DNA of 64,000 nt, from positions 58,520 to 122,519 of the forward strand of contig JANQMA010000011.1 in the NCBI GenBank assembly GCA_028280285.1, given 5' to 3'. A program made the translations under genes and the position numbers. Below, piece after piece: positions 223 to 54,358 of this stretch (positions within the stretch are counted from its first letter, which is position 1; each line of letters begins with the position of its first letter). The stretch is from Candidatus Omnitrophota bacterium. Its GTDB lineage: Bacteria > Omnitrophota > Gorgyraeia > Zapsychrales > Zapsychraceae. The notes under the pieces were generated by a model that was not told the origin of the DNA, searched no databases, and saw nothing but the letters and a program-made list of their open reading frames with translations.

Positions 223-663
223 TCACACATTCCAAGAGTAGGGAATATTTTTATCATCTAACGAAAGTGTTTCAGATTCTTGCGGTGAATGGGGCAAATC
301 CGCGCAATTCGCAATGATGGCCTTGGTATCCCCTAACGCTTTAAATGCGTATATAACTCCTGGCGGGATACGCACCAGTTGATAATGATCAACACCGATT
401 GTTATTTCTTGCACTTGACTTTTGGTCGAGGACTGGTCCCTTGCGTCATACAAGACAAGCTGTATATTACCTTCAACAACGGCAAAATTTTGTGTTTGCT
501 CACTATGCTTCTTCCACCCTTTAATGATGCCCGGATTAACGACAGAAAAATAAATTTCGCCAAACTGTGTAAAATGCCCGGCATCGTTTCTAAGCATATG
601 CATCACAGCGCCCCTGTCATCAGCAATAACTTTAAGCGGTTCAATCAAAATACCCTCAATCAT
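223..663 (-). CDS. Cupin-fold sugar-nucleotide epimerase/isomerase (dTDP-4-dehydrorhamnose 3,5-epimerase / 3,4-ketoisomerase WxcM/FdtA-like)
   Basis: ORF 223..675 (~150 aa). Size and hydrophobic beta-strand pattern fit small cupin NDP-sugar epimerases/isomerases. The first in-frame ATG at 663 overlaps the upstream stop as ATGA; the ORF-track start at 675 is GTG. Confidence 0.55.
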   Translation of the reverse strand: MIEGILIEPLKVIADDRGAVMHMLRNDAGHFTQFGEIYFSVVNPGIIKGWKKHSEQTQNFAVVEGNIQLVLYDARDQSSTKSQVQEITIGVDHYQLVRIPPGVIYAFKALGDTKAIIANCADLPHSPQESETLSLDDKNIPYSWNV

Positions 664-1766
664 GCCTTCACCCACCTTAGTTTTTTTGCTGATGCTTTGG
701 CAACATAGTCATTAATTTGTCCGACCGTTAATTCATAAATATCTTCTGTATTGCCGTAAAAACGTTTATACCAATCGGCTGTAAACTGTATCGTCTCTGA
801 AAAGTTAAGCGTCGGCGCCCATGCCAAATCCTTATGCGATTTTTCAATCGATAGCTTAAGCAGTTTGGCTTCCTTCATATTGCCTTCAAGAGGTTCATGC
901 ACCCAACCCCCTTTGCCCCAAAATTTAAGAAATTCATCAGCCAACTCGCCTACCGATTTGACCTCCCCACTATCAGGGCCAAAATTATAAGACTCTCCAT
1001 TCCCTTTGCCAGAATTTAAAAGTTCTGCCGCAAGCCACAAATACCCACTGAGTGGTTCCAGCACATGCTGCCAGGGACGCGTGGCATCGGGTTTACGGAT
1101 AACAGGTTTATCATTTTTGCTCCATGCCCGCACGCAATCCGGCACAATCCGGTCGCGGGCCCAGTCACCACCGCCAATCACATTGCCCGCACGGGCCGCC
1201 GCCACTTTCAATGTAGCGGAGTGCTGATAAAACGATCTAAAGTAGGAACTAAACGCAATCTCCGCACACGCCTTAGAGGCGCTATATGGATCAGCGCCGC
1301 CCAATTGATCTGACTCTTTATAGCCGACATCTAAACCAACATTCTCATAACACTTATCACTGGTGACAATCACTGCCGCCTGCACATAGTCGCGCGTGCG
1401 CAGTAAGTCCAAAACATTGACCGTGCCACCTAAATTCACATCAAATGTTTCTTTGGGATCATCATAAGACGCGCGCACAATCGGTTGGGCTGCCATATGA
1501 AAAACAATGTGCGGTTTAAAATCATCTACCGTTTTTACTAAAAATGAATTATCACGCACATCCCCCATAACATGGGTGATTTTTGACTCGATGTCCAACA
1601 CTTCAAAATGATTAGGATCTGACGGCAAATATTTAGAATAACCCAAAACTTCCGCGCCCAGTTCGAGTAACCACGTGGTGAGCCATGAACCCTTAAACCC
1701 GGTGTGGCCTGTTACTAAAACACGCTTATTTTTATATATATTATTGAATATCTGTAAATTATTCAT
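660..1766 (-). CDS. rfbG: CDP-glucose 4,6-dehydratase
   Basis: 368 aa. N-terminal VLVTGHTGFKGSWL Rossmann motif and SDR YxxxK core (YSASKACAE) are characteristic of CDP-glucose 4,6-dehydratases. Confidence 0.8.
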   Translation of the reverse strand: MNNLQIFNNIYKNKRVLVTGHTGFKGSWLTTWLLELGAEVLGYSKYLPSDPNHFEVLDIESKITHVMGDVRDNSFLVKTVDDFKPHIVFHMAAQPIVRASYDDPKETFDVNLGGTVNVLDLLRTRDYVQAAVIVTSDKCYENVGLDVGYKESDQLGGADPYSASKACAEIAFSSYFRSFYQHSATLKVAAARAGNVIGGGDWARDRIVPDCVRAWSKNDKPVIRKPDATRPWQHVLEPLSGYLWLAAELLNSGKGNGESYNFGPDSGEVKSVGELADEFLKFWGKGGWVHEPLEGNMKEAKLLKLSIEKSHKDLAWAPTLNFSETIQFTADWYKRFYGNTEDIYELTVGQINDYVAKASAKKLRWVKA

Positions 1767-1767
1767 T

Positions 1768-2754
1768 TTAACTCTTACGTAACAAAAAAGTTTTTTTGAT
1801 CCATTGCAAAATATTTTTACACCATTTCACTGTTATATTTGATTGTCCCAGGTCAAAAAACGTTGATTGTTTTTTGTATCGCAGAGGATCATTGCATTGT
1901 TTCTTTTGCGCAAGAATTGATAAAATCGTTACATTAACACTACCCGGTAATTTTTCATACGACGTTGATAAACATTCAAATCCGTTTTCCTCCAGGAGCC
2001 GCATCATGGCCCGTCTTGAAAAATACGTAAAATGCGTAACATCAATGGGAAGATTTCGCCCCCGCCACTTCAAAAAGAATAGCCAAAAAAATACTGTCCC
2101 TATATCATAAGGCACCTCCACATAAAGTAAGCCATCTTCTTTTAGAACATTGTGAAGATTCTTTACTTCTTTTTTCAAATCAACGCAATGCGCTAAAACA
2201 TCGCAAAAAAGAACCAGATCGACGCCTTCCGCGCAAGCAACGTCAGACGCCCATACATCTTTTTTTAAAACTTTTGGACTACATGATTGCCGTGGAATAG
2301 GGTCTAAAACAGTGCATTGATACCTTTCTTCTGCTAAATCTTTAAGCATAAATCCATCACGTCCTCCGATGTCATAAATTGTCTCTATCTTATAGTTATA
2401 TTTTTTTTCAGTATGTTTCACCATGTCATAGATGCGCTTTGAATACATGGATAAAAAATTTTGATCGGCATAAACGAATGTGTCCAAATGACGAATACGC
2501 TCCTCCAAAAGAAAATAGGATTGACTATAAATTTGATGCAGCTCTTCTTCATCAAAAAATTTACTATTATAAAAAAGACGGCAGGGTAAACAGCAGGATA
2601 TCTCACCTTTTGGTTGGGCTTGATTGGTTACTTTAAGCAATATTTCATCAATCTCAATATCTGCAATAACTCCATTTCCTGAAGGTTTTATATTAAACGG
2701 AAATGAAAATGATGGTTTTTTATGACAAACAGGACAAACAGCATACTTCTTCAT
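1768..2754 (-). CDS. SAM-dependent methyltransferase with N-terminal Cys4 zinc ribbon (NDP-hexose C-methyltransferase-like)
   Basis: 328 aa. CPVCHKK...CCLPC ribbon, then a class I methyltransferase glycine-rich motif (IYDIGGRDGF). This architecture matches TylCIII-type sugar C-methyltransferases. Confidence 0.6.
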   Translation of the reverse strand: MKKYAVCPVCHKKPSFSFPFNIKPSGNGVIADIEIDEILLKVTNQAQPKGEISCCLPCRLFYNSKFFDEEELHQIYSQSYFLLEERIRHLDTFVYADQNFLSMYSKRIYDMVKHTEKKYNYKIETIYDIGGRDGFMLKDLAEERYQCTVLDPIPRQSCSPKVLKKDVWASDVACAEGVDLVLFCDVLAHCVDLKKEVKNLHNVLKEDGLLYVEVPYDIGTVFFWLFFLKWRGRNLPIDVTHFTYFSRRAMMRLLEENGFECLSTSYEKLPGSVNVTILSILAQKKQCNDPLRYKKQSTFFDLGQSNITVKWCKNILQWIKKTFLLRKS

Positions 2755-2796: not shown

Positions 2797-3570
2797 CTAC
2801 CACTTTATCCAGGACGCATTATTGGTTTCATATAAATTTTGAAGAAATTTATAATCCCGGAAAGTATCCATGCACTGCCAAAATCCGTTGTGAACATAAA
2901 CATTCAATTCCTGGTCCTTAGCAAGATTCTGCAAAGGATCCCGTTCCAAAACACATGTTTCATCGTCAGTTAAGTAATCAAAAATCTTTTTATTAAAAAC
3001 AAAGTACCCGCCGGAGATAGAACTGGTATGATTTCTCGGCTTTTCACTGAAGGAGACCACCTTATCGCCTTCAATAGCTAATTCACCGTATTGTGAAACA
3101 GGCGCAACGCCTGTCACCGTTCCGAGTTTATCATGCGACCGGTGATATTTAACCAATTCAGTAATATCTAAATCAATAACACCGTCACCATATGTCAGCA
3201 TGAATTCGTCCCCATCAATATATTTTTCAATCCGTTTAACACGTGCACCCGTCATGGCGTTTTCACCGGTATCAACCAGTGTCACCTTCCAGTCAGATTC
3301 CATGTGACGTGGATGAATAACAATCTCACTCTTTCCAAACTCTACGGTAAAATCATTAGTGATCATTTCATATTCATAAAAAAACCGGCGGACAACCTCT
3401 CCCTTATAACCTAAACATAAAATAAAATCGGTATACCCATAATGCGCATACGTCTTCATGATGTGCCATAAAATCGGCATCCCGCCGATCTCAACCATTG
3501 GTTTCGGCTTGACTTCCGTTTCTTCCCTAAGGCGTGTGCCTTGGCCGCCACACAATATGACAACTTTCAT
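2797..3570 (-). CDS. rfbF: Glucose-1-phosphate cytidylyltransferase
   Basis: 257 aa. MKVVILCGGQGTRLREETEVKPKPMVEIGG nucleotidyltransferase signature typical of RfbF/DdhA. Confidence 0.85.
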   Translation of the reverse strand: MKVVILCGGQGTRLREETEVKPKPMVEIGGMPILWHIMKTYAHYGYTDFILCLGYKGEVVRRFFYEYEMITNDFTVEFGKSEIVIHPRHMESDWKVTLVDTGENAMTGARVKRIEKYIDGDEFMLTYGDGVIDLDITELVKYHRSHDKLGTVTGVAPVSQYGELAIEGDKVVSFSEKPRNHTSSISGGYFVFNKKIFDYLTDDETCVLERDPLQNLAKDQELNVYVHNGFWQCMDTFRDYKFLQNLYETNNASWIKW

Positions 3571-3579: not shown

Positions 3580-4704
3580 CTATTTAATAATTTCTTTAAC
3601 AGATTGAATGATGTACTCTACTTCCGCATCTGTAAGCTGCGGATAAAGCGGCAATGTGATCGTCGCATCACCGATAAATTCACAATTCGGAAAATCCCCA
3701 CGCACATATTCATATTTGTTTCGATAATAACTCATTAAATGAATAGAACGATAGTTAACAGCAACACCAATTTCAGCATCTTGAAGCGCATGTAAATATT
3801 CATCCCGTTTATTAGGATCGACCCAAATAGTATACAGGTGATACGCAGACTTTGATCCATCAACAACAGCAGGTAAACGAATATCTTTAATTTGACTAAA
3901 GGCCTTGTTGTATTTTTCTGTAATTATTCGGCGCTTTTCAAGAAAAGTGTCAATCGAATCCATCTGATGAACTAAAAGAGCGGCGGCAATATTGTTCATA
4001 TTGCATTTAAATCCCAAAAACTCCATATCGTAATGCTTGTATAATTTAGAATACCGGTCGGCCGCATCCGCGCTCATTCCATGCATCCTTGCCTTAATAA
4101 ACCACGCGTAAGCTTCTTTATCATGACATGTGATGGCCCCACCCTCTCCTGAGGTAATACTTTTTGTCGCATAAAAAGAAAAGCAGGCCATATTCGGCGC
4201 TGCTCCTATAGGTACACCATCACGCTCGCTTTCCAGACAATGCGCGCTGTCTTCAATAACTTTTACATTATGTTTTTGGGCAATCGCATTGATGCGTTTC
4301 ATATCACACATCTGCCCGTATAAATGGACCGGTAAAATCGCCTTAGTCCGCTCCGAAATTTTACCTGCAATCAACTCAGCATCAATATTGCCGGTAGATG
4401 CTTCAACATCGACAAAGACAGGTTTCGCTCCACAAGCCTCAATCGCATTGGCCGTGGCGATAAACGACATCGGTGTTGTAATAACTTCATCCCCCGGACC
4501 TATGCCGTAATAATGAAGACATAACTCCAACGCATTGGTCCCTGAACTTAACCCCACCGCATAAGAGGCGTTTAAATAGGCAGCTAACTTATCTTCGAAG
4601 GTCTTGGTCCACTCACCCGTCGTTAAAAAAAGTCCGTCCAGGACCTTACGTACTTCATCCTTATCTTTATCAGATAAATTATGCCTATAAAATTCAATTT
4701 TCAC
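3580..4704 (-). CDS. DegT/DnrJ/EryC1/StrS-family PLP-dependent sugar aminotransferase
   Basis: 374 aa. SFYATKSITSGEGG PLP-lysine motif and conserved N-terminal region. GTG start. Confidence 0.8.
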   Translation of the reverse strand: MKIEFYRHNLSDKDKDEVRKVLDGLFLTTGEWTKTFEDKLAAYLNASYAVGLSSGTNALELCLHYYGIGPGDEVITTPMSFIATANAIEACGAKPVFVDVEASTGNIDAELIAGKISERTKAILPVHLYGQMCDMKRINAIAQKHNVKVIEDSAHCLESERDGVPIGAAPNMACFSFYATKSITSGEGGAITCHDKEAYAWFIKARMHGMSADAADRYSKLYKHYDMEFLGFKCNMNNIAAALLVHQMDSIDTFLEKRRIITEKYNKAFSQIKDIRLPAVVDGSKSAYHLYTIWVDPNKRDEYLHALQDAEIGVAVNYRSIHLMSYYRNKYEYVRGDFPNCEFIGDATITLPLYPQLTDAEVEYIIQSVKEIIK

Positions 4705-4779: not shown

Positions 4780-6732
4780 TTAGTTAGGACTAACGGTCTC
4801 TGAAACAACCTCTCTTACAGGAATATTGTCTTCGATACTCTTCTTGGCCGCAGTACGCATTTTCAATCTTTTATTTCCATAGCTACTGCGTAGTTTAGCG
4901 TCAATGAGTTTTTGAAATTGAAAGGTCGCGTTAATTTTCTTATTGATATGCTTCCATCCAATGATCCTATGGAAAATGTTACGTAATTTCAATTTCCAGC
5001 CGGCCAATCCAGTTTGACGGAAGACCTCCAGCTGCTCCAAACTTTCAATATTGTCTTTGATCGACGTTAAAATAAACGTCTCTTCAAAATTATCACCATA
5101 CGGTAAAAGCTCAACGAGCGGCGGAAAAACATACTGCTGTTCAAGCGGTGTAAAATCACCGGTCTCTATCGCGTGCATCTTTAATTCTATCTCTTCTGTC
5201 CGGTCTTCCGGTTTAATTAATCCATACTCAATCTTAGCATTGTCGTATTCCTTGCTGACAAAGTAATATTCAAATAACAGTTTGTGCTTGTTAGGAAGTT
5301 CCTCGACGTTAAACAGATTATCTAATTTAAACTTTTTGGCAAGTTGACAAAACTCCTCGAAACGTTCCATACGTTTCAAATATGTGCTATTCCCGTCTAA
5401 ACTCTCCCAAAACAAATGCCCCTTGGCTAAATCAATACCATGTTTTTCCGGATCAGCATGTCCCGCCGATCCCGGATAATACTCACAAAAATTAAGTGAA
5501 GGATTAACCATGCTAAACGACTTTTTATTTTCAACGAGAAATTTAATCAAATATTGAAAATCATCCTCCGTCTCCGTTGGAAGACCAAACATAATGTTAA
5601 CGCTCACATAAAGCCCGGCCTTTTTCCCTTCACGCAACACAGCTCCGATGTCCACATCCTTACACAGGTTCTTGCCAACCTCGGCTAATAGACGCAGCGA
5701 AGGCGTTTCCATCCCATATCCAAGAAGTGTGCAGCCCGCTTTTTTAAGCTTTTTATAAAGCGGTGTGCGCATCTCTTTACGGATAACGGCATTTTCTAAA
5801 TTCCATTCAATCTCTTTATTCAAGCCTGATTCAATCATCATATCGCAAAATTTCTCCAACTCACCGATTTTTGAGTTCGAGATATTATCACACATGCGTA
5901 AATAATTTAAGTTCGGATATTTGGCCTTTTGATATTTCACCTCTTCGAACAACCGCTCAGCTGAACGCACGCGGAATGTTTTCATAAAACCGATCGCGCT
6001 GCAGTAGTTGCATTTATTCACACACCCGCGCGTCGTATAGGTTGGCAGCGCATTAGGCTGATCATAATAACTGAATTCAAAATCATCAAAATCAGGAAAA
6101 GGCAGTGAGTCTAGCTTCTTAATAAATTCCGCGTGAGGTCCCCGGATAACCTTTCCGTTATGTTTATAAACAAACCCCGGAACGGCTTGACCTTCCTGAC
6201 CATTTAAGACCATTTTCATAAACCCGAGAAGCGCATTCTCTCCTTCATCCTGGCTGACCGCGTCAATATAATCACGGGAAAGTAAGCTGTCAGTATTTTT
6301 CATAAAACTGGCAACATCAGGCCCGCCCAGCATATGAATATAACCAGGAAAGATATTACGTAAATCTTCTAAAAATATTTCTGCTAAAATACGGGAAGAA
6401 CATTGGCAAGAACAGGCCACAACCAACGGGTTTAAATCACGAATGCGCTGCATAAACTCAAGGAAAATCGCGCGGTTATTTTTGTAGTACTCATACATTG
6501 CTTCCTGATCCATGCAATAGTTGTACCCCTGCGCCATATCCCAATAAAATCTATATTTCTTGCCACCCAAATTATACGCGTGCGCGTTAATATCTAAGAT
6601 CTTACACTTGATATCGTTTTCCGCTAAAAAACTTTTTAGCAAAGCCGGCCCTAACGGCGGGCACCCTACGCCCCAAAAAGGCATTTGGATCAAAACAATA
6701 TCTGCTTCACGTGTTTCAGTTGATCTTTTCAT
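4780..6732 (-). CDS. Cobalamin(B12)-binding radical SAM enzyme
   Basis: 650 aa. N-terminal B12-binding Rossmann-like region (ADIVLIQMPFWGVGCPPLGPALLKSFL), canonical CxxxCxxC (TRGCVNKCNYC) and a long C-terminal extension. Confidence 0.75.
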   Translation of the reverse strand: MKRSTETREADIVLIQMPFWGVGCPPLGPALLKSFLAENDIKCKILDINAHAYNLGGKKYRFYWDMAQGYNYCMDQEAMYEYYKNNRAIFLEFMQRIRDLNPLVVACSCQCSSRILAEIFLEDLRNIFPGYIHMLGGPDVASFMKNTDSLLSRDYIDAVSQDEGENALLGFMKMVLNGQEGQAVPGFVYKHNGKVIRGPHAEFIKKLDSLPFPDFDDFEFSYYDQPNALPTYTTRGCVNKCNYCSAIGFMKTFRVRSAERLFEEVKYQKAKYPNLNYLRMCDNISNSKIGELEKFCDMMIESGLNKEIEWNLENAVIRKEMRTPLYKKLKKAGCTLLGYGMETPSLRLLAEVGKNLCKDVDIGAVLREGKKAGLYVSVNIMFGLPTETEDDFQYLIKFLVENKKSFSMVNPSLNFCEYYPGSAGHADPEKHGIDLAKGHLFWESLDGNSTYLKRMERFEEFCQLAKKFKLDNLFNVEELPNKHKLLFEYYFVSKEYDNAKIEYGLIKPEDRTEEIELKMHAIETGDFTPLEQQYVFPPLVELLPYGDNFEETFILTSIKDNIESLEQLEVFRQTGLAGWKLKLRNIFHRIIGWKHINKKINATFQFQKLIDAKLRSSYGNKRLKMRTAAKKSIEDNIPVREVVSETVSPN

Positions 6733-6861
6733 AATTTTCCTCGAATATAATAAATATTAATTAGAAATATTAAACCTGAATATCTATCTTGATCTGATTA
6801 GTAATTATAGCACAGGCTATTATAGACTCAACTTATTATGCAATAATTACTTAGAGCCCTA

Positions 6862-12038: not shown

Positions 12039-12077
12039 TACCGAAACTTATATGATGTGCATCTATTGAATTAATAT

Positions 12078-15872: not shown

Positions 15873-15874
15873 GA

Positions 15875-25543: not shown

Positions 25544-25725
25544 TTTGTCCCCCTTTTGCGGGTCTTTAATATGGCAATATTATTACAACTTATTGGCAAA
25601 TATACCAGTTTTTTCTTTAAAAAAAATTGACGTTCAATATTTGAACATTTTAAAAAATTGATCATGATTATTGTTCAATTTATGAACACGATCTACTGTC
25701 TAATTTTAAAAATACACCTACTTTT

Positions 25726-29698: not shown

Positions 29699-30181
29699 CT
29701 AGTTCTTTTTGATTAATAAATTGTCATATAGTTTACGGATAACCCCATCCCCGCCATTTTGGGGAACAATCACTTGCGCTATATCCAAAATTGTTTGGCT
29801 AGCATCTTGCGGCGCAACAGGATAACCGACAGCTTTCATCACTTCAAGATCATTAATGTCGTTACCGACATACAAAACATCATTAAGATCAACACCGCGT
29901 TCTTGGCAATATTTTGTAAGAACGCTTAATTTGTCTTCAACACCGTGAATCACATCAATGGCCAGCTTATTGGCACGGACCTTTACAACCGCATTGGTTT
30001 CTGTCGAAATGATGACTTGGGGTTTGTCCATCTTCTTAATCAGTGAAATCGCCAGTCCGTCACCACGATGACAAAAAACCGCCTCGGTGCCGTTCTGGTC
30101 AACCAAAACCCGGTTATCCGTTAACACACCGTCAAAATCGTAAACAATCAACTCTATTTTTTCTAAATCTAACTCTTTCAT
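29699..30181 (-). CDS. KdsC-like HAD phosphatase (ulosonic acid-phosphate phosphatase)
   Basis: 160 aa. IVYDFDGVLTDN motif I and overall KdsC/YrbI family pattern. Confidence 0.8.
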   Translation of the reverse strand: MKELDLEKIELIVYDFDGVLTDNRVLVDQNGTEAVFCHRGDGLAISLIKKMDKPQVIISTETNAVVKVRANKLAIDVIHGVEDKLSVLTKYCQERGVDLNDVLYVGNDINDLEVMKAVGYPVAPQDASQTILDIAQVIVPQNGGDGVIRKLYDNLLIKKN

Positions 30182-30186: not shown

Positions 30187-30909
30187 CTATAGTTTATGCG
30201 CATAAAATGTCATGATATTCCCCGGAAAAGGCGGCGACATTTCTGTATTATCAAACAATCGCATGAGATTTTCTTTTGTAAAATGACGTGTCTCAAAAAA
30301 AGGATAATCGACATGCTCTACTTCAAACCCATGATCACGTAACAAACGGAACACAGACTCATTAGAAAACAGACTGATATGTGTCTGATCGTGCAGCATC
30401 CTGAAATGCTCACCAAAGTGTCTGGCCAAATGGCAATCAAAATCCGGCGTTCCCAACACAATTTTTCCACCTGGCTTCATCACACGATTAATTTCCTTAA
30501 TAATAGATACAGGGTCCTCTAAATGTTCCAAAACGTGCATCAGTACAACGACATCAAAAGAATCACTTTCATATTTGGCATCATGTAATGGCCCTATAAA
30601 TATCTCAGCCCACTTCTTGGCTTGCTCGCCGGCAAATTTTGAAATTTCGACCCCATGTTTTTCCCAGTCATCATTAATCCCGGAAAGAAAAAAGCCAATC
30701 CCACAACCCACATCCAATATCCGCCCTGGGGGTAAGGCATTAATGTAGGCTAAATCATTTTTGACATCTTCCAGAATCCTGTCCCTCTCGTCCGCACGTT
30801 TGCGCTCCATTCCGTCAGGATCAATTGTCACTTTCCAATAATTTTCTTCAAAGACAGACTCTTTGCTTGTTTCTCTTCTAACAAAATATTTATCCGGGCT
30901 TACAAACAT
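30187..30909 (-). CDS. Class I SAM-dependent methyltransferase
   Basis: 240 aa. ILDVGCGIGFF SAM-binding motif. Confidence 0.65.
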   Translation of the reverse strand: MFVSPDKYFVRRETSKESVFEENYWKVTIDPDGMERKRADERDRILEDVKNDLAYINALPPGRILDVGCGIGFFLSGINDDWEKHGVEISKFAGEQAKKWAEIFIGPLHDAKYESDSFDVVVLMHVLEHLEDPVSIIKEINRVMKPGGKIVLGTPDFDCHLARHFGEHFRMLHDQTHISLFSNESVFRLLRDHGFEVEHVDYPFFETRHFTKENLMRLFDNTEMSPPFPGNIMTFYAHKL

Positions 30910-30919: not shown

Positions 30920-31609
30920 TTACCTAACATTGTTTTCCATTAATGCTGTTAATTTTTGAAACAGCTCAACATCTTGGGGCTCATCAATTTGAAATGAGTT
31001 TAGTGCCCCCATTTGATAGTGTGTAATCTTACCACCTAAGCGGTTATTTTGCTCCATTAAAATTTCCGGTCTGAAAATATAGATAGAACCATTTTCTATA
31101 AAATCTTCAGGGCAATCTTGCCTGCGCATACGCGCGTTCTTATCATAATTGAGCGGCTCAATGCCTCCGTTATTTTCCCTCCATAAAAATCCATGCACCA
31201 GACATGACGAAAACAGTGAATCGGCATTCTCTTCTATAATATGGTCAATCGCATTGGCTATATCATTTTCTTCTCTCAGCGGAGATGTTGCCTGCAAGAA
31301 AACGACCCAATCGGGGCTGTAATCTTCTTTAGCCCGGTAAACTTCAAGTGTGTGTTTAAGCGCAGATTCCGATGTTGCAAAATCATCACTCAATTCAGCC
31401 GGACGATCAATCACTTCTGCCCCCGCCTTAATAGAAACATTTTTAATATCCTCATTATCCGTTGAAACGACAACGCGATTAATCCTGGCCGTAGTTAGCG
31501 CCTGCTCAATAGAATGCACAATGAGCGGCTTACCGTTAAAAGGAATCAAATTTTTGCGTGGAATCCCTTTTGATCCACCGCGCGCTGGAATAATAGCCAT
31601 TATTTCCAT
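30920..31609 (-). CDS. Acylneuraminate/KDO-type cytidylyltransferase (second CMP-ulosonic acid synthetase)
   Basis: MEIMAIIPARGGSKGIPRKN signature. Start is ambiguous: in-frame ATGs at 31600, 31609 and 31618, and the ORF-track GTG at 31639 would overlap the upstream gene. Confidence 0.8.
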   Translation of the reverse strand: MEIMAIIPARGGSKGIPRKNLIPFNGKPLIVHSIEQALTTARINRVVVSTDNEDIKNVSIKAGAEVIDRPAELSDDFATSESALKHTLEVYRAKEDYSPDWVVFLQATSPLREENDIANAIDHIIEENADSLFSSCLVHGFLWRENNGGIEPLNYDKNARMRRQDCPEDFIENGSIYIFRPEILMEQNNRLGGKITHYQMGALNSFQIDEPQDVELFQKLTALMENNVR

Positions 31610-31619
31610 AGACAGCATC

Positions 31620-33527
31620 CTAAACACATACTTTTTCACTCACAGAGTCACGTGAAGCATCGATTGTCTTTTCATCACTTAAAAAGGAAATAACCCGGTT
31701 AAGCCCACTTTTCTCATCACAAAAAGGGTCGACTATCCTTTTAATATAATTCTCTTTAAATGCAACAAACTCTTCGTCTACTTCTTCTCTTAACCAGAAC
31801 GCAACACAATCAAACAACTCATCGCGACTAAACGCGGATAAATGCGGAATATCCTTAATCCAAATATCTAAAGAGTGATAATACTCTTCCGGAGCATAAT
31901 AAATAGCCTTCACGCCACCCGAAATCGCCTCAAACCCGGCTGATGAGGTAAAAAACGAGATGACCAGGTCGGATACCGCCATAATTTCTTGTGTTGTGTA
32001 AGCAGACGTTTTCTTGTCTATACATATAACCCTTTCCATGTGTTTTAACTTTTTGACAGCTAAACTAATAGGGCTACCCTCGGCATACTTATCAAAAGAA
32101 GACTTCATTTTATAAATCAAAAAATAATCATCATTAGCATCAATGAGTTGAGCAATATCTTCCAACCTCCTTGCCGATTGTGCTTCATCTGTCCAAGAAA
32201 ACCGCCCCATGGGTGCATCACACAAACAAATAATTTTTTTATTTTCCGGAATATTTAACTGCTGCCGCAGTTTATGACGCGCTTCCTTAATAGACGATAA
32301 TTCTTTAACAAAAGAAGATGTTACTGTTCCCACGTCAACCTTTTTCCCAAATGCATCTTGATTGGCTTCGAAAAGCCTTTGCGATAAACGGTTAGATAAC
32401 AGCACATTATGCGGTAAATAGCTATAATAAGTTATGTATAAGTCCGCCAACACCTTATCACTAAAAGGAAAAAACGACGTTGATAAATAAAGGAACGAAT
32501 TATGAGAACCGTTCAACTGCTGTATCATAATACTGTTACTGCTTCCCGGCTCCTGCACGTATAAAAAATGATTTACAGAATACTGTTCAAAAAAAGAAAA
32601 CCAAAGTATCTTTTGCCTCAATGTTTTTATATAAGACAGGAGAAAAATAATATTTTTATTTTTTAGAGATAAAAGCCTCAAATTCAAAGCAAATAACCGA
32701 TGTAACAAGCCGCCCAAATAACGAAACACATTACATTGATTAAGCAGCTCATCTAAGGTATAGCAATTTTTATACTTTACTTTTAACGCATTTAACTGAG
32801 GTTCGTTTATTTTTGTGTTCACAACAAATAAACTCTCCTCATCCTTGATAGTTTCGTCCACCTTTAATTTATCAATGAATCTTTCGCAAACCGATTTGGG
32901 AAAGGTCCCCCATATATTAATGGCGTAATAAAAGTTCTGTTTTCTCGACGCTTTAGCCATAGTCATTTTAAAAATAACATATAGCGGATAAACCAAAGCA
33001 GCAGCCAGATATTTCAATTGATTTCCTCGCGCTTCACGTTTCAAGCGTGAAACACAGCTTGGCGCGATATGAAACCATTTTGGCATGCTTTGCTTCCCGG
33101 CCAACAGAGTATATAATCTATACGGAAAATTTTGCGCAGGCACTAGTTCAACATGATCACATCCGTATTTTTCTCTGAATTTTTTAACAAATATAATCAT
33201 AAGCGTGATTTCTTTAAGATGGAGAATTAAATCTTTTTTCAAGCATAACGCAGAGTTGGAATGCCCCAATAAATCCTTATAGAGGCTTATTTCATCTTCG
33301 GAAAAATAAAAATCAAAAACCTCCTCTATCTTTTTTCCTGCCTCGATATCCGAGGAAAATAAATCAAAGCCGCTTATAAAATCACCGGCAAGCTTGTGTC
33401 CGTTTGTCAAAGAGCCTTCGAAATAAAAAACATCATCATATTGCCTGCACAACCGCTCATGCGTTTGATCAGCATTATAAATTAACAGTGTCTTTGTTTT
33501 TTTGCTGTCCGGCATCCTGCACCTCAT
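31620..33527 (-). CDS. Large TagF-like putative transferase (paralogue of 10119..12038)
   Basis: 635 aa. C-terminal SDLVISFFTSSAGFEAI resembles the TagF D-x-L-I-x-D-Y-S-S motif. Similar length and motif spacing to the ORF at 10119..12038. Confidence 0.4.
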   Translation of the reverse strand: MRCRMPDSKKTKTLLIYNADQTHERLCRQYDDVFYFEGSLTNGHKLAGDFISGFDLFSSDIEAGKKIEEVFDFYFSEDEISLYKDLLGHSNSALCLKKDLILHLKEITLMIIFVKKFREKYGCDHVELVPAQNFPYRLYTLLAGKQSMPKWFHIAPSCVSRLKREARGNQLKYLAAALVYPLYVIFKMTMAKASRKQNFYYAINIWGTFPKSVCERFIDKLKVDETIKDEESLFVVNTKINEPQLNALKVKYKNCYTLDELLNQCNVFRYLGGLLHRLFALNLRLLSLKNKNIIFLLSYIKTLRQKILWFSFFEQYSVNHFLYVQEPGSSNSIMIQQLNGSHNSFLYLSTSFFPFSDKVLADLYITYYSYLPHNVLLSNRLSQRLFEANQDAFGKKVDVGTVTSSFVKELSSIKEARHKLRQQLNIPENKKIICLCDAPMGRFSWTDEAQSARRLEDIAQLIDANDDYFLIYKMKSSFDKYAEGSPISLAVKKLKHMERVICIDKKTSAYTTQEIMAVSDLVISFFTSSAGFEAISGGVKAIYYAPEEYYHSLDIWIKDIPHLSAFSRDELFDCVAFWLREEVDEEFVAFKENYIKRIVDPFCDEKSGLNRVISFLSDEKTIDASRDSVSEKVCV

Positions 33528-35301
33528 TAAGATACGTATATAATCCCCTGTTTTTCATGAGAGCATCGTGCGTACCCTGATCTTTAACCACGCCATCATC
33601 CAGAATAACGATTTTATCCGCTCTTTTGATCGTCGATAAACGATGCGCAATAACAATAACTGTTGTAAATTTAGCAATATCCTCAATAGCATCTTGAATC
33701 TTTTTTTCGGAAATATTGTCCAAAGAGCTTGTTGCTTCATCCATAATAAGAATGGTCGGCTTTCTTAACATAGCCCGCGCGATGGCAATCCTCTGCTTTT
33801 GCCCTCCGGATAGTTTTATACCCGAATCGCCGACTAGCGTGTCATACCCATTTGGCGTTTCGTTAATAAAATCATGCGCATTGGCCAATTTAGCCGCCGC
33901 GACAATCTCTTGCTCAGAGTAATCCTCACGGCCAAAACATATGTTTTCTCGAATCGTACTGTTATAAATAAAAGAGGTCTGGCTCACATAAGCAATGTGG
34001 TCCAGGTAAGATCTATTTGTAAAAGAAAAAATATCCTCACCATCTATGAATATCGTTCCGCGATTGGGTTTATATAATCTGAGCAACAAATTAATAATCG
34101 TTGTTTTTCCCGCCCCTGAAACACCGACAAGAGCCGTAAAATCCCCCATATGAATATCAAAGGAAATACCTTTCACAACATCTTTCGTGTCATCGGTATA
34201 ACGGAACCAGACGTCCTTAAACGTGATTTTATCTTTTGGATTTTCTAACGCGATATCCCCGTAGGTTAAAGTAGAAACCTCCTGCAAAGACAATTCACGC
34301 ACCACCTGCGCATGAGGCAGACATTCACAAATCGACAAAAAAGAAGTCCCTATAATCTGCACTGATGGGAGCAGACGGTTGGTGACGACAACAAATGTTC
34401 CAAAAACAGGCAAAAGCTCTTTCATCATAACTTCCGGCTGATAACTAAGATAAATCCCAACACCGCCTAAGAGCCCAAAAAAGGCTAATTTAATAAACGA
34501 TTCGGGTAGTGCACGCCCCATCAACATTTTTAATTGATTATTCAAATGCTGGTCCATCGCCTTATAAAATTTATCCCTCCAGGTTTGAATTGATTGATAA
34601 ACCTTGATGGATTTGATGCCCGTAATGAGCTCATTTAAGACGACATTTTTCTCCTTTTCCCCCTCCATAGACAAAATGGAGCAACGCAGGGTGATCTTTT
34701 GAATAATCTTTTTAGTAAAAAATGCATAACAAAACCCTACAACAAATAAAACCAATGCGGCCTCAAGGCTTAACAACAAAAGAAGACTCAACAAAAACAA
34801 GGCGTTAACAGCATCGTAAAACAAACGGATAGTCGCCAAAACAAGCCCTGATGCATACCTTGGGGCGGTAGCTCCATTATAAATTAACTTACCTTGCTGA
34901 TGAGTATGGTAGAAATCAATGTCAGCTTGAACAAACTGCTGAAAAGCCTTTTTCTGCGCTTCACGGGAAATCTGCATCATAAAGGAGTATCCAAAATAGT
35001 GATACATAAATCTTGCCGTTACAGCAAAAAACGCCACTACCAATAAAAGAATGCACGCGCTACGCAACGAACCCTCAACTGAAAACGATGCCAGCAGGCC
35101 TTCGAAAAACCCGACCATAGTGCCCTGCGCCTGCACATCTAATCCATAGTTGATAACCGGATACAATGCCGCCAAACTCATAGTTTCCAGCCCGCCAGCA
35201 AGAAATGCCAGCATAATTAACAGACAGGATTTAATCTTATGCGGCTTAAAAAAATACCAAACAGTTTTGGGATATAATAAAATGTTATCTAATTTACTCA
35301 T
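33475..35301 (-). CDS. ABC exporter, fused transmembrane + ATPase (MsbA/type I exporter-like)
   Basis: Six predicted TM helices, then Walker A GVSGAGKTT, ABC signature LSGGQKQRIAIARA and Walker B ILIMDEAT. The ATG at 35301 avoids overlap with the regulator gene; the ORF-track TTG start is at 35343. Confidence 0.8.
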   Translation of the reverse strand: MSKLDNILLYPKTVWYFFKPHKIKSCLLIMLAFLAGGLETMSLAALYPVINYGLDVQAQGTMVGFFEGLLASFSVEGSLRSACILLLVVAFFAVTARFMYHYFGYSFMMQISREAQKKAFQQFVQADIDFYHTHQQGKLIYNGATAPRYASGLVLATIRLFYDAVNALFLLSLLLLLSLEAALVLFVVGFCYAFFTKKIIQKITLRCSILSMEGEKEKNVVLNELITGIKSIKVYQSIQTWRDKFYKAMDQHLNNQLKMLMGRALPESFIKLAFFGLLGGVGIYLSYQPEVMMKELLPVFGTFVVVTNRLLPSVQIIGTSFLSICECLPHAQVVRELSLQEVSTLTYGDIALENPKDKITFKDVWFRYTDDTKDVVKGISFDIHMGDFTALVGVSGAGKTTIINLLLRLYKPNRGTIFIDGEDIFSFTNRSYLDHIAYVSQTSFIYNSTIRENICFGREDYSEQEIVAAAKLANAHDFINETPNGYDTLVGDSGIKLSGGQKQRIAIARAMLRKPTILIMDEATSSLDNISEKKIQDAIEDIAKFTTVIVIAHRLSTIKRADKIVILDDGVVKDQGTHDALMKNRGLYTYLNEVQDAGQQKNKDTVNL

Positions 35302-35854
35302 TTTTAAGATTACTGCCGATAACCAGATTTGAGTCTTGGACAAGTTCTGAGACTAAGTCGATACTACGCTCTTTGTTAATTTCATTAACTTCCACATTCT
35401 CTTTACACAACAATAAAACACCATCAATAGTTTGATCAGGAATCTCATTAATCAATGTATATGATAAATCATCCAAATCTAATTCTTGCAGCACAACCTC
35501 GACCAATTTGCCAAAATCAGATGAACCGTAAATATAAAACTTACGATTACCCTGGGCGTATAAATCGGAAAGGTATTTATACATCGCGTCTTTAATCGAT
35601 CCAATCGAATGAATAGTCTTCCAGGCATATTTAACGGACTTGCGCAGCTTCTCAGAAATACCCTTTGGTGTCAGGAGGTACTGCACCTTACGCTTATCCA
35701 ATTGGACAATACGGATATACCCCTTAGAAATAAGACGGCGCAGAACCATATTAACCATTCCGAGGGACATACCTGTTTGTTTGGAAAGATACCGCTGGTT
35801 GGCATTCAGCTCAGGGCCGATAATATTAACAAGCTCAAATTCTCTTTCGTCCAA
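35294..35854 (-). CDS. Winged-helix (MarR/GntR-like HTH) transcriptional regulator
   Basis: 186 aa. N-terminal HTH LVNIIGPELNANQRYLSKQTGMSLGMVNMVLRRLISKGYI; the C-terminal domain has no recognised family. TTG start. Head of the island, divergent from 36114. Confidence 0.5.
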   Translation of the reverse strand: MDEREFELVNIIGPELNANQRYLSKQTGMSLGMVNMVLRRLISKGYIRIVQLDKRKVQYLLTPKGISEKLRKSVKYAWKTIHSIGSIKDAMYKYLSDLYAQGNRKFYIYGSSDFGKLVEVVLQELDLDDLSYTLINEIPDQTIDGVLLLCKENVEVNEINKERSIDLVSELVQDSNLVIGSNLKNE

Positions 35855-54357: not shown

Positions 54358-54358
54358 T

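Follow-up and report, generated by a model that had tools for sequence, protein, structure and literature searches.

A Campylobacter-type phosphoramidate module in a recurring cassette of a probable cell-surface glycan locus from an uncultured bacterium

Introduction

To our knowledge, the decoration of sugars with phosphoramidate is rare and has so far been tied to Campylobacter. In C. jejuni, Cj1421 and Cj1422 are the genetically assigned MeOPN transferases. The roles of Cj1415 to Cj1418 have been described previously (PMC11800397, PMC3907429, PMC6429109). The locus analyzed here carries homologs of three proteins of the C. jejuni MeOPN pathway, a glutamine kinase (Cj1418), a C26-type hydrolase (Cj1417), and a cytidylyltransferase (Cj1416), in a window (the whole stretch of DNA analyzed) of 64 kb. 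These genes, together with those for an APS-kinase-like protein and two sulfotransferase-fold proteins, had escaped the initial annotation, which described the region as a decoration system.

Results

As first described, positions 223 to 35854 hold a tightly packed run of 33 ORFs (≥100 aa), all head to tail on the minus strand, where every feature below lies unless indicated otherwise. Most gaps are indeed short, with 25 of the 32 junctions at ≤20 nt and 11 overlapping, and the only large ones measure 182 nt (25544-25725) and 129 nt (6733-6861). The many GTG/TTG starts held up in part: they were found in 10 of the 33 genes by the longest-ORF rule, and at least three of these starts are called differently on the Logan contig or in the protein collection. 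Across the whole window, 62 of the 66 ORFs treated as genes are on the minus strand and the GC skew is negative, and co-orientation is no special mark of this run.

The two ends of the run, taken at first as island limits, do not bound the locus. A 34th minus-strand gene, coding for an SDR epimerase/reductase (5′ part, 1..222; full length, 302 to 314 aa; Pfam Epimerase), continues past position 1, and its complete copy was located on Logan contig L001 (11548-12492) of the same organism. Beyond it, L001 encodes a 716-aa GT2+GT4 fusion and then a polytopic membrane protein without known family, starting ca. 4.3 kb past position 1. The glycan locus continues leftward out of the window. To the right it probably extends to 39644, taking in a divergent polytopic GT-C (PMT_2/ArnT-like; 36114..37697, plus strand; Pfam PMT_2, 28 bits, cut-off 26) with nine TM segments, a class I SAM methyltransferase of 292 aa (37705..38583; Methyltransf_23), and, as its probable right-hand end, a 350-aa SDR epimerase/dehydratase (38592..39644; Pfam Epimerase; GalE/RmlB-like matches below cut-off).

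The run opens, as initially proposed, with a winged-helix regulator and an MsbA-type ABC exporter. The regulator (35294..35854; MarR/EPS-associated type, Pfam HTH_24) had a single NCBIfam match, TIGR04176 MarR_EPS, at 48.7 bits (cut-off, 88). Upstream of it, in the divergent intergenic region, lies the best sigma-70-like promoter match (35920..35948, minus strand; TTGACA-17-TATTAT, 11/12), the total count of such sites across the promoter-scanned region being at chance level. The exporter (33475..35343; ABC_membrane + ABC_tran) is a fused TMD-NBD protein of the HepA/MsbA/PglK class with at least four TM segments and NCBIfam scores of 367 (HepA family), 342 (MsbA), and 234 bits (PglK), each below cut-off; a similar exporter is present in metagenomic contig L033. 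A TM-helix scan of 223-35854 found helices in the ABC exporter only, and the noted lack of Wzx, Wzy, and the WaaL ligase inside the run was borne out. Neither an initiating phosphoglycosyltransferase nor KpsC/S-type or Wzm/Wzt-type components nor a recognized ligase were found in the sequence covered. In exporter-dependent pathways, Wzx and Wzy are absent by design. With a fused ABC exporter and a MarR_EPS-like regulator at the head of the operon, this absence is no argument against a polymer, and it does not support the earlier view that the locus is unlike a repeat-unit polymerization system. The operon head fits an exporter-dependent route without Wzx or Wzy.

The phosphoramidate module is anchored by an L-glutamine kinase of the Cj1418 family (GlnK, 799 aa; 17285..19684), which matched NCBIfam NF004508 at 915 bits (cut-off, 501) and belongs to the PRK05849/glutamine-kinase family above the curated cut-off. 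It has >5,800 relatives, and those at 45 to 47% identity carry the JGI name “glutamine kinase.” The Cj1417-like class-I amidotransferase (C26; 16636..17292) is a candidate gamma-glutamyl-CDP-amidate hydrolase, with its best NCBIfam match (NF045546, of that name) at a sub-threshold 95.7 bits (cut-off, 250) and 37 to 43% identity to the syntenic genes. Next comes a Cj1416-like nucleotidyltransferase (15875..16645; Pfam NTP_transf_3), a candidate CTP:phosphoglutamine cytidylyltransferase, which is 48 to 52% identical to the protein encoded after the GlnK-C26 pair in L033-L036. Together, the three enzymes would provide cytidine diphosphoramidate (donor branch 3). The class I SAM methyltransferase MT310 (13632..14564; Methyltransf_11/25) is a candidate O-methyltransferase of the phosphoramidate; it shares 37 to 43% identity with its counterparts in L038, L039, L040, and L044 but, by BLAST, does not match the methyltransferases found at the same position in L033, L035, and L036.

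Adjacent to MT310 is an APS-kinase-like P-loop kinase (13077..13625; Pfam APS_kinase, 101 bits; below all NCBIfam APS-kinase cut-offs). With its copies in L039 and L040 (46 to 66% identity), it forms a separate subtype, outside both the canonical APS-kinase type and the type adjoining glutamine kinase elsewhere. It may make a 3′-phospho donor, either PAPS or 3′-phospho-CDP-amidate; the putative roles of the C26 protein, the NTP transferase, and this kinase rest on sub-threshold matches plus synteny. Two sulfotransferase-fold proteins flank the kinase and methyltransferase genes. Sulfo1 (329 aa; 12078..13067; Sulfotransfer_1, 31 bits) is syntenic in L039-L042 and keeps its 5′-PSB (TRSGKT) and 3′-PB (RHPVDIIYS) motifs across five orthologs. 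Sulfo3 (436 aa; 14580..15890; Sulfotransfer_3, 37 bits), whose gene overlaps that of the cytidylyltransferase by 16 nt, is 44 to 45% identical to its counterparts in L039, L040, L044, and L046 and 23 to 24% in L033 and L036, with conserved motifs RSG..SL, R...AS.K, and G..W.G.S..GK. Both families retain the 5′-PSB and 3′-PB donor-binding motifs and are predicted to transfer phosphoramidate and/or sulfate. In L044 and L046, an ATP-sulfurylase fusion and a canonical APS kinase are encoded directly after Sulfo3, joined in L044 by a CysQ-like phosphatase, an arrangement that speaks for Sulfo3 being a regular PAPS-dependent sulfotransferase. In L033 and L036, a Sulfotransfer_3 protein follows the module, and neither a LIC12162 gene nor a sulfurylase gene occurs within 10 kb of the kinase gene. 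We favor Sulfo3 as the phosphoramidate transferase, the neighboring methyltransferase yielding O-methyl phosphoramidate.

The order GlnK-C26-NTP_transf_3, mostly with a methyltransferase and a kinase, was found again in L033-L036. A longer order, GlnK-C26-NTP-MT-Sulfo3-kinase-Sulfo1-LIC12162-GT1-SDR-DegT-RfbF-RfbG-cupin, recurs in L039, L040, L042, L044, and L046, most of which miss at least one member, with partial runs in L038 and L041. Four to five metagenomic contigs, or more, carry the cassette in the same order, and shorter ones carry partial runs. The phosphoramidate branch, methyltransferase, kinase, Sulfo1/Sulfo3, LIC12162 protein, GT1, and the two deoxyhexose branches (4 and 5, below) form one cassette.

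In all, five donor branches are encoded. Branch 4 would lead to an N-formylated amino-deoxyhexose and branch 5 to a CDP-6-deoxyhexose through RfbF, RfbG, a cupin, and a reductase. This part of the run encodes a sugar N-formyltransferase of the ArnA N-terminal domain type (7913..8845; Formyl_trans_N/C; NF005414, 200 bits, below cut-off), an NDP-hexose 4,6-dehydratase-like SDR (6862..7893; TIGR01181, 316 bits, below 365; 69 to 70% identity to the L039 and L040 counterparts), and a DegT-family sugar aminotransferase (3580..4704; DegT_DnrJ_EryC1, 377 bits; 62 to 64% identity to the syntenic L039 and L040 genes). Between the last two, a 650-aa B12-type radical SAM enzyme (4780..6732; Radical_SAM, weak B12-binding), with rSAM C-methyltransferase-type NCBIfam matches below cut-off and an ortholog at 52% identity in L040, is probably a C-methyltransferase. 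Glucose-1-phosphate cytidylyltransferase RfbF (2797..3570; TIGR02623, 341 bits, cut-off 300) and CDP-glucose 4,6-dehydratase RfbG (660..1766; TIGR02622, 457 bits, cut-off 278) are separated by a 328-aa class I SAM methyltransferase (1768..2754; Methyltransf_23; no NCBIfam match). The RmlC-like cupin (NDP-4-keto-6-deoxyhexose epimerase type; 223..675; dTDP_sugar_isom, 52 bits) keeps its position after RfbG in L042 and L046.

Two further branches would deliver CMP-activated acids. Branch 1, a predicted CMP-ulosonic acid route, comprises a SAF-less NeuB-family synthase (28854..29690; NeuB, 237 bits; below the NeuB and PseI cut-offs), a KdsC/KDN-9-P-phosphatase-type HAD phosphatase (29699..30181; best NCBIfam NF058599, KDN-9-phosphatase, 113 bits, below 180; KdsC family 99.8, below 107), a 240-aa class I SAM methyltransferase (30187..30909; Methyltransf_23/11), and a second CMP-ulosonate cytidylyltransferase (30920..31639; CTP_transf_3; PseF model, 131 bits, below cut-off). 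Branch 2 would make a CMP-nonulosonic acid of pseudaminic type, using PseC aminotransferase (25726..26928; TIGR03588, 515 bits, cut-off 423.5), pseudaminic acid synthase PseI (19691..20758; TIGR03586, 476 bits, cut-off 340; NeuB+SAF), a PseH-like GNAT N-acetyltransferase (22425..23015; TIGR03585, 45 bits, below 93), and a PseF-like CMP-nonulosonate cytidylyltransferase (23051..23797; CTP_transf_3; TIGR03584, 102 bits, below 206). Its putative tailoring enzymes are an ATP-grasp ligase (21439..22425; ATP-grasp_3, PylC-like_N; PRK12767-type matches below cut-off), which probably tailors the nonulosonic acid with N-acyl or aminoacyl groups, a 227-aa HAD-family hydrolase (20759..21442; HAD_2), and a 577-aa B12-binding radical SAM enzyme (23810..25543; B12-binding + Radical_SAM). 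Upstream of PseC are a 478-aa CBS-domain + SDR fusion (26938..28374; CBS + Epimerase; PseB just 28 bits), a putative non-canonical dehydratase or epimerase, and an RmlC/FdtA-like cupin (28386..28829; dTDP_sugar_isom, 34 bits). The NCBIfam profile search found no PseB or PseG equivalog in the run, so the nonulosonic acid may differ from pseudaminic acid proper.

The initial annotation counted one GT1 and two TagF-like proteins. The GT4-type enzyme (8842..10128) is the single Glycos_transf_1 (Pfam) protein of the run; it has 36 to 43% identity in L038, L039, L040, L044, L045, and L046, where it lies downstream of the LIC12162 gene, sometimes with one or two genes inserted. The 639-aa LIC12162-family protein (10119..12038) is probably a transferase with a CMP- or CDP-linked donor. 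Its model shows a GT-B fold of generic type, and the TarL/TagF-like polymerases that rank among its top matches do not stand clearly apart from other GT-B enzymes. The TagF-like assignment is borne out only partly; searches of local Pfam-A and NCBIfam copies gave no match, to Glyphos_transf or any other model, for this protein or for the 635-aa one (31620..33527; precomputed PF27878). The 635-aa protein is an unclassified orphan: it matched only itself among 8,000 word-sharing candidates from 5.8 × 10^9 proteins, had no match in PDB, local Pfam, or NCBIfam, and gave an unusable AF2 model. A weak hhalign match (P = 0.037) of its SDLVISFFTSSAGFEA to the LIC12162 C-terminal motif suggests a possible GT-B-like C-terminal domain. 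The extended locus holds, besides GT1, the LIC12162 GT-B, the GT2-GT4 fusion (two catalytic domains), the GT-C, and possibly the 635-aa protein. Because the locus runs past the window, the shortage of transferases relative to precursor enzymes is a window artifact.

Discussion

Taken as a whole, the best explanation, which we regard as moderately probable, is that the run forms the core, cut off by the window, of a larger cell-surface glycan locus (at least 43 kb) in an uncultured diderm bacterium, with an LPS O-chain, capsule, or EPS as product; the MlaDEF genes in its flank indicate an outer membrane. The decoration reading is partly supported, and the initial observation as a whole partly confirmed. 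In its favor, a large share of the genes serves to make or attach methyl, formyl, N-acyl, phosphoramidate, or sulfate decorations, and the run lacks Wzx/Wzy/ligase; against it, the transferase argument is lost, and the ORFs of ≥100 aa that were scanned or read in the 64 kb revealed no gene for flagellin, pilin, or Maf (MptE-like) and no flagellar gene. Wzx/Wzy/WaaL or OTase genes just beyond position 1 had been named as evidence against decoration, and what was found goes halfway, with the polytopic membrane protein on that side and the GT-C at the other end. The acceptor may be a protein, lipid A-core, or a lipid anchor.

In the assembly that we propose, glycan synthesis would take place on a lipid carrier at the cytoplasmic face, with GT1, the LIC12162 protein, and the GT2-GT4 fusion as the enzymes, possibly joined by the 635-aa protein. 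The kinase (13077-13625) would supply a 3′-phosphorylated donor, and Sulfo1/Sulfo3 would attach phosphoramidate and/or sulfate. The fused ABC exporter would flip or export the product, making Wzx and Wzy unneeded, and the final transfer may fall to the downstream polytopic membrane protein or the upstream GT-C. A Campylobacter-type phosphoramidate pathway would sit inside the surface-glycan locus of an uncultured bacterium, in a cassette that recurs in environmental genomes.

Gene content and sugar donor pathways

Read 5′ to 3′, with coordinates descending, the operon on the minus strand (223-35854) opens with a winged-helix regulator, a fused ABC exporter (33475-35343) and a 635-aa orphan protein (31620-33527), followed by an apparent second ulosonic-acid branch (cytidylyltransferase, methyltransferase, KdsC/KDN-9-P-type phosphatase and SAF-less NeuB-type synthase). 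Then come a cupin, a CBS-SDR fusion and PseC, and a run of B12-rSAM, PseF-like cytidylyltransferase, PseH-like GNAT, ATP-grasp ligase, HAD hydrolase and PseI. The central part encodes a glutamine kinase, a C26 amidotransferase, an NTP_transf_3 protein, a Sulfotransfer_3 protein (Sulfo3), a methyltransferase, an APS-kinase-like protein, a Sulfotransfer_1-like protein (Sulfo1), a LIC12162-family protein and a GT1 (8842-10128). The series closes with a formyltransferase, a 4,6-dehydratase-like SDR, an rSAM protein and a DegT aminotransferase, and finally RfbF, a methyltransferase, RfbG, a cupin and an SDR running off the window.

Five assignments exceeded the NCBIfam equivalog cut-offs, all others being family-level or sub-threshold: the glutamine-kinase family NF004508 (17285-19684, score 915 versus a cut-off of 501), PseI (TIGR03586, 19691-20758, 476 versus 340), PseC (TIGR03588, 25726-26928, 515 versus 423.5), RfbF (2797-3570, 341 versus 300) and RfbG (660-1766, 457 versus 278). 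With PseC and PseI above cut-off, a PseH-like GNAT (45 bits versus 93) and two candidate PseF genes (102 and 131 bits versus 206), the island resembles the pseudaminic acid pathway (PseB-PseC-PseH-PseG-PseI-PseF). However, no PseB equivalog was found in it (best scores 28 to 38 bits versus 408), nor did any island protein match PseG or Glyco_tran_28, and for this reason we describe the sugar as pseudaminic-acid-type rather than as pseudaminic acid. The island also departs from that pathway in the CBS-SDR fusion and cupin that precede PseC, in the ATP-grasp, HAD and B12-rSAM genes, which would imply a heavily tailored derivative, and in the additional NeuB-type synthase with its KdsC/KDN-9-P-type phosphatase, which points to a second ulosonic acid.

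A predicted CDP-amidate module outside Campylobacter

A large co-directional polysaccharide locus is as such ordinary. What distinguishes this one, judging from its genes, is a predicted complete glutamine-kinase/CDP-amidate module set within a conserved recurrent cassette. In C. jejuni, four enzymes make 3′-phospho-cytidine diphosphoramidate from L-glutamine plus ATP and CTP: the glutamine kinase Cj1418, the CTP:phosphoglutamine cytidylyltransferase Cj1416, the gamma-glutamyl-CDP-amidate hydrolase Cj1417 and the CDP-amidate 3′-kinase Cj1415, an APS-kinase homolog; Cj1419 and Cj1420 are methyltransferases, and Cj1421 and Cj1422 the genetically assigned MeOPN transferases (PMC11800397, PMC3907429, PMC6429109). 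The 3′-phosphorylated CDP-amidate is taken as the donor of the capsule O-methyl phosphoramidate (PMC11800397). According to a 2019 review, P-N sugar decorations are known only from Campylobacter, where they influence resistance to serum and recognition by phages. MeOPN-type genes were predicted in Borg elements in an earlier preprint, so the module's occurrence outside Campylobacter is not itself new. In the literature searched, we found no description of it in a bacterial nonulosonic-acid locus or with sulfotransferase-fold or LIC12162 partners, and no biochemical characterization of the phosphoramidate transfer step.

The 799-aa protein, with PPDK_N and PEP-utilizers domains and relatives named glutamine kinase, is a clear member of that family. 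More than 5,800 relatives at an E value of ≤1e-10 were present among the candidates examined, with source names including Omnitrophica, Lentisphaerae, Alphaproteobacteria, Methylophaga, Maridesulfovibrio and a methanogen. The adjoining C26 protein (16636-17292) has the Cj1417 model NF045546 as its best NCBIfam match, at 95.7 bits (under the cut-off of 250), and is 37 to 43% identical to the gene that follows the glutamine kinase in four unrelated metagenome contigs (L033 to L036), one of them a Maridesulfovibrio genome. The next protein (15875-16645) matches NTP_transf_3 only and no specific model, and is 48 to 52% identical to the syntenic genes of the same four contigs.

The kinase (13077-13625) is APS-kinase-like, falls below every NCBIfam APS-kinase cut-off and is 23 to 30% identical both to kinases defined by their context and to E. 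coli CysC. It lacks the CysC motifs ENIRR and ISP as well as the HQWN motif of the type adjoining glutamine kinases elsewhere, belongs to neither class and groups with the kinases of two related loci, L039 and L040 (46 to 66% identity), as a subtype of its own.

The likeness to the C. jejuni MeOPN pathway thus consists of a glutamine kinase above the curated cut-off, a C26 protein whose best match is the gamma-glutamyl-CDP-amidate hydrolase, a cytidylyltransferase-type NTP_transf_3 gene, an APS-kinase-like kinase and a SAM methyltransferase, all in one operon and, as in C. jejuni, inside a surface-polysaccharide locus (PMC11800397). The differences are that the host is an unrelated uncultured diderm, that the kinase is of a distinct subtype, that two sulfotransferase-fold proteins and a LIC12162 GT-B enzyme accompany the module, and that its links are to nonulosonic-acid and CDP-deoxyhexose genes rather than to a heptose/KpsMT capsule.

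A recurrent cassette in metagenomic loci

A search of metagenome contigs with an alignment of the LIC12162 family yielded 13 loci, onto which all window proteins were mapped. The cassette runs in the order glutamine kinase, C26, NTP_transf_3, methyltransferase/Sulfo3, kinase, Sulfo1, LIC12162, an optional rSAM protein and GT1, and continues with the 4,6-dehydratase-like SDR, DegT, RfbF, RfbG and a cupin. The cassette loci repeat the window order, but one or more members are missing in most. The methyltransferase and Sulfo3 are adjacent, Sulfo3 coming first in the window and the methyltransferase first in the related loci. Identity to the window proteins is 44 to 45% for Sulfo3 and, in both L039 and L040, 69 to 70% for the SDR and 62 to 64% for DegT.

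Four loci (L039, L040, L044 and L046) carry the glutamine-kinase module together with much of the long order. The available sequence of L042 contains the later cassette genes and not the glutamine kinase or C26, and L038 and L041 hold short partial runs. Two further contigs, L033 and L036, have the series kinase-C26-NTP_transf_3-methyltransferase with a Sulfotransfer_3 gene directly next, amid NeuB, CTP_transf_3 and DegT genes; they contain a single kinase, and neither LIC12162 nor a sulfurylase lies within 10 kb of the kinase gene. We considered the Pfam-less 673-aa and 702-aa proteins of these two contigs as LIC12162-like candidates and rejected them, BLAST being negative and hhalign insignificant. 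The syntenic cassettes are surrounded by genes of O-antigen/EPS type (WbqC, asparagine synthase, heparinase II/III-like and GT2).

Inside the cassettes of L046 (5562-7748) and L044 (7348-9453) we also observed an unusual 701- to 728-aa fusion of a pyruvate-kinase barrel, PUA_2 and ATP sulfurylase; a stand-alone pyruvate-kinase barrel occupies the same place in L040 (6689-7768).

The LIC12162 protein and the 635-aa orphan

The initial annotation counted two TagF-like proteins in the island. They are unrelated to each other, and neither matched Glyphos_transf even at E values up to 10. The 639-aa protein (10119-12038) matches the LIC12162 family (precomputed PF27859) over its full length. This family, with 358 representatives at an E value of ≤0.001, mostly of 600 to 650 aa and aligning end to end, has five invariant residues (E7, D73, H378, N522 and D543). 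An AlphaFold model built on the family alignment (pLDDT 87.2, pTM 0.88) has a GT-B fold, with UDP-GlcNAc 2-epimerases, OtsA, MurG and BshA as top Foldseek matches (E ca. 1e-6). Among the structural scores, a UDP-GlcNAc 2-epimerase ranked first (13.3), followed by the TagF-like polymerase Cps3D (11.6), TarL (11.3, with the longest alignment, 310 residues), the CMP-Kdo domain of WaaA (11.0) and TagF (10.2). On these modeled similarities, "TagF-like" would be acceptable as a statement about the fold only.

Two precedents bear on its possible activity. Tannerella has TagB-like nonulosonic acid transferases (Tanf_01245; PMC5420450), and the TagF-like FtaD of C. difficile decorates a flagellin glycan with a phospho-group taken from a CDP-linked donor (bioRxiv 10.64898/2026.02.12.704994). 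Like these, the LIC12162 gene adjoins genes for CMP- and CDP-linked donors, and its confidently modeled GT-B fold has TarL, Cps3D and TagF among the best structures; by analogy with FtaD, direct transfer from CDP-amidate would be conceivable. Unlike TagF, TarL and FtaD, the protein has no sequence match to Glyphos_transf, nor did the family profile match any sequence of a solved structure in the PDB, and it has ca. 640 residues with invariant positions of its own. Further parallels are the LIC12162+GT1 pairs of Leptospira and Herbaspirillum LPS loci, which share the family, the downstream GT1 and the nonulosonic acid genes, the Herbaspirillum pair lying downstream of neuABC (PMC6679464). In contrast, the window and at least four metagenomic loci have the pair inside a phosphoramidate/sulfotransferase-fold cassette, an arrangement for which we found no report in the literature searched.

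The 635-aa orphan has a precomputed match to PF27878. At an E value of ≤0.001 it retrieved only itself among word-sharing candidates of 5.8 billion proteins, it has no relative in the PDB, and its single-sequence AF2 model (pLDDT 41.7) was unusable. A C-terminal stretch, SDLVISFFTSSAGFEA, aligned with the LIC12162 motif DxPSTAFFEA in an hhalign comparison to the LIC12162 profile, without reaching significance.

Phosphoramidate, sulfate, or both

Sulfo3 (14580-15890) and Sulfo1 (12078-13067) have weak Pfam matches, above or near cut-off, and carry the donor motifs QRSGGSL and LRNPLGLIAS, and TRSGKTL and RHPVDIIYS, respectively. The motifs common to the orthologs are a 5′-PSB of the form RSG..SL or TRSGKT and a 3′-PB of the form R...AS.K or R.P.D...S. 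Conservation of both elements in both families implies a 3′-phosphorylated nucleotide as donor. 3′-Phospho-CDP-amidate is a close analogue of PAPS. No ATP-sulfurylase domain was detected among the scanned ORFs of the window, and the pair that would supply PAPS (sulfurylase plus APS kinase) was not found there. Only Sulfo3 among the partners follows or adjoins the kinase-C26-NTP_transf_3 genes in all seven loci with a glutamine-kinase module, and two of these loci have no sulfurylase nearby. We tentatively propose, at less than even odds, that Sulfo3 may be a phosphoramidate transferase using 3′-phospho-CDP-amidate as a PAPS isostere.

A contending explanation, to which we give a substantial though less than even chance, is that the kinase and both sulfotransferase-fold proteins are a true PAPS sulfation branch and that another enzyme moves the phosphoramidate, so that the glycan would bear both groups. 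One candidate mover is the LIC12162 GT-B protein, which would use unphosphorylated CDP-amidate in the manner of TagF or FtaD, with release of CMP; FtaD itself is a precedent for CDP-X phosphotransfer to a glycan (bioRxiv 10.64898/2026.02.12.704994). L044 and L046 speak for such a branch, as their Sulfo3 genes (44 to 45% identical to that of the window) are immediately followed by the ATP-sulfurylase fusion and a canonical APS kinase, 34 to 35% identical to E. coli CysC and with the ISP motif; L044 has a CysQ-like phosphatase too, plus a separate kinase adjoining the glutamine kinase. The window kinase, moreover, scores equally against solved APS kinases (96 bits) and context-defined CDP-amidate kinases. 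The arrangement of L033 and L036, where the glutamine kinase, C26, NTP_transf_3 and methyltransferase genes lead to a Sulfotransfer_3 gene with a single kinase and with neither sulfurylase nor LIC12162 in the 10 kb around the kinase gene, argues against it, as do the lack of an ATP sulfurylase within the window and the 3′-phosphorylated form of the presumed C. jejuni donor (PMC11800397). Against LIC12162 as the mover stands the Herbaspirillum pair after neuABC, reported with no mention of phosphoramidate genes and pointing to a role as CMP-nonulosonate transferase (PMC6679464). With Sulfo3 as phosphoramidate transferase on the one side and the sulfation branch on the other, the glycan product may carry phosphoramidate, sulfate or both.

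Extent and composition of the locus

The initial annotation described 33 tightly packed minus-strand genes, and we recovered the same unbroken series of 33 ORFs of ≥100 aa. Junctions are ≤20 nt in 25 of 32 cases and overlapping in 11, and only two sizeable intergenic gaps occur, of 182 nt (25544-25725) and 129 nt (6733-6861). The frequent GTG/TTG starts also noted there were found in 10 of the 33 longest ORFs, but at least three of these differ from other gene calls: contigs of the same organism or products in the protein collection have 146, 324 and 631 aa where the window ORFs have 150, 329 and 635. With such shorter starts, some of the long 5′-end overlaps (-50 and -53 nt) are probably longest-ORF artefacts. 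Co-orientation is no property of the island, as the minus strand carries 62 of the 66 ORFs treated as genes in all 64 kb, and the window has a negative GC skew over its full length.

The limits 223-35854 proved wrong on both sides, since glycan genes continue to the left and to the right. The first 222 nt encode the N terminus of a further SDR on the minus strand, running off the window. Exact-protein look-ups led to two short Logan contigs of run SRR20820735. One of them, of 16,968 bp, matches the left end of the window exactly and continues for another 4.1 kb, with the complete SDR, a 716-aa protein that combines GT2 and GT4 domains, and the opening 182 codons of a very hydrophobic protein in which at least four TM segments fall within 120 residues. 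For the GT2-GT4 fusion, no close relative was found among GTDB species representatives, the best match being 42% identical over part of the protein (Elulimicrobium). The 182 available residues of the hydrophobic protein gave no detectable homologs, no Pfam match even at a relaxed threshold, and no similarity to its positional analog in L046; a hydrophobic, relative-less protein of this kind would be typical of Wzy/WaaL-type proteins, which is no proof. All window proteins found in a 15-billion-protein collection were singletons at 90% identity, coming from a single NCBI contig and one Logan run.

To the right lies a divergent intergenic stretch of 259 nt with the best sigma-70-like match of the region, TTGACA-17-TATTAT (35948-35920, minus strand); promoter and terminator scans were overall at chance level. 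Beyond it, a PMT_2 protein (GT-C, ArnT/PMT-like; 36114-37697, plus strand) with nine TM segments is followed by a methyltransferase and an SDR up to 39644, next to which lies MTHFR. The remaining flank is housekeeping (MarR, peroxiredoxin, ECF sigma factor, NuoF-like, ZIP, FKBP, MlaDEF and ABC-F), and the presence of MlaDEF indicates a diderm envelope.

Several features of this flank deserve a record. Two families of intergenic palindromes have their first copies on either side of the MTHFR gene, where the glycan locus has its right edge, one at 39642-39704 and 54283-54364 (GTTGCT.../...AGCAAC arms, 83 to 86% identity), the other at 40682-40743 and 55697-55767 (25-nt arms that match perfectly, AATTAAGGGGACACAATACTTAATT and its reverse complement); REP-like elements or terminators are possible identities for them. 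Just past the locus, a 429-aa LamG (Laminin_G_3) protein (40794-42083) has one N-terminal hydrophobic segment and the lowest GC3 of the flank (0.25). At 44566-47324, a stand-alone NuoF-like flavoprotein (Complex1_51K, SLBB and NADH_4Fe-4S) is followed directly downstream by an ECF sigma factor and by a putative anti-sigma factor with a very weak zf-HC2 match. Further out are a GT2 (58790-59581, plus strand), DPM1/GtrB-like on reading by eye, and, on the minus strand, a second GT2 with C-terminal TM segments (62039-62986) and a 332-aa protein with ca. 11 TM segments and no Pfam match (62995-63993); these three genes may be linked to the locus as a possible polyprenyl-phosphate sugar supply for the PMT_2 GT-C protein.

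The GC content, a comparison proposed in the initial annotation, is 0.401 in the island versus 0.423 in the flank, and the difference in codon usage (JS) exceeded that of all 1,000 gene-label permutations. A sub-block at 10119-15890, comprising LIC12162, Sulfo1, the kinase, the methyltransferase and Sulfo3, has a GC content of 0.358 and a GC3 of 0.22 to 0.34, versus ca. 0.40 in the rest of the island, suggesting that these genes were acquired as a unit. We found no tRNA and no flanking direct repeat at the island, and Pfam scans revealed no integrase or transposase. With none of these and only a modest difference from the flank, we rejected a recently acquired mobile island and read the locus as a mosaic chromosomal glycan locus.

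Assembly route and acceptor

Within 223-35854, no Pfam or NCBIfam match to Wzx, Wzy or an initiating phosphoglycosyltransferase was obtained, in line with the earlier reading, and the ABC exporter is the sole polytopic protein there; neither an initiating phosphoglycosyltransferase nor a recognizable ligase was seen in the locus sequence examined. The regulator and exporter at the head of the operon were likewise borne out. The only NCBIfam match of the regulator is MarR_EPS, and the exporter, second in the operon, is a fused ABC_membrane+ABC_tran protein with best NCBIfam matches to the HepA family, MsbA and PglK, all under the equivalog cut-offs. A similar exporter lies inside the related locus of L033. 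These two genes fit an exporter-dependent route, where neither Wzx nor Wzy would be expected. The class of exporter and the run without Wzx/Wzy are shared with fused-exporter systems such as the HepA heterocyst polysaccharide and the PglK N-glycan of C. jejuni, a further example being H. pylori Wzk. The window differs from them in that its exporter scores under every cut-off, that neither an oligosaccharyltransferase nor WaaL was identified, and that a PMT_2 GT-C protein adjoins.

We think it unlikely that this is an ordinary Wzx/Wzy-dependent O-antigen or capsule locus whose flippase, polymerase and initiator lie outside the window, the ABC protein having another role. The cluster demonstrably runs on to the left of position 1, where the polytopic protein (at least four TM segments in its first 120 residues, no detectable homologs) has features typical of Wzy or WaaL, and L046 repeats the order cupin, SDR, GT2 and polytopic membrane protein. 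However, the 182 residues of that protein matched no Pfam family at the relaxed threshold, no Wzx (Polysacc_synt/MOP) was seen in the ca. 68 kb examined, and a fused ABC exporter stands second in the operon, a similar one being embedded in L033.

The original interpretation, a nonulosonic-acid-based O-glycan placed on an existing protein (flagellin, pilin or S-layer) with no polysaccharide, appears quite improbable. It drew on precursor enzymes far outnumbering transferases, and inside 223-35854 tailoring enzymes are indeed many and glycosyltransferases few. The argument fails for the extended locus, which has GT1, the LIC12162 GT-B protein, two GT domains in the fusion, the GT-C protein and perhaps the 635-aa protein, a set that is enough for an oligosaccharide or repeat unit. 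Genes of pseudaminic-acid type (PseC and PseI) are typical of flagellin glycosylation islands (PMC13317340, PMC9298399), and FtaD adds its CDP-activated phospho-group to a flagellin glycan (bioRxiv 10.64898/2026.02.12.704994). Yet scanning and reading of ORFs over the 64 kb turned up no flagellin, Maf/MptE-like, flagellar, pilin or S-layer gene, cytoplasmic flagellin glycosylation needs neither a fused ABC exporter nor a MarR_EPS-like regulator, a GT2-GT4 fusion and a polytopic membrane protein lie beyond the window, and the syntenic cassettes sit among the O-antigen/EPS-type genes.

Implications

The uncharacterized LIC12162 family hereby gains a fold and a genomic context. The donor pathway forms part of a conserved cassette, and this cassette spreads from lineage to lineage. 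It includes sulfotransferase-fold proteins as well as LIC12162 GT-B enzymes, and in unrelated environmental bacteria it is tied to nonulosonic acids and to rare deoxy-sugars. The enzyme sets that it provides suit recombinant work on which protein class moves the phosphoramidate and on whether a single glycan carries it together with sulfate. If Sulfo3 does transfer phosphoramidate, the activity would be new for the sulfotransferase fold, and P-N-decorated, nonulosonic-acid-containing surface glycans would be widespread in environmental bacteria and no Campylobacter oddity.
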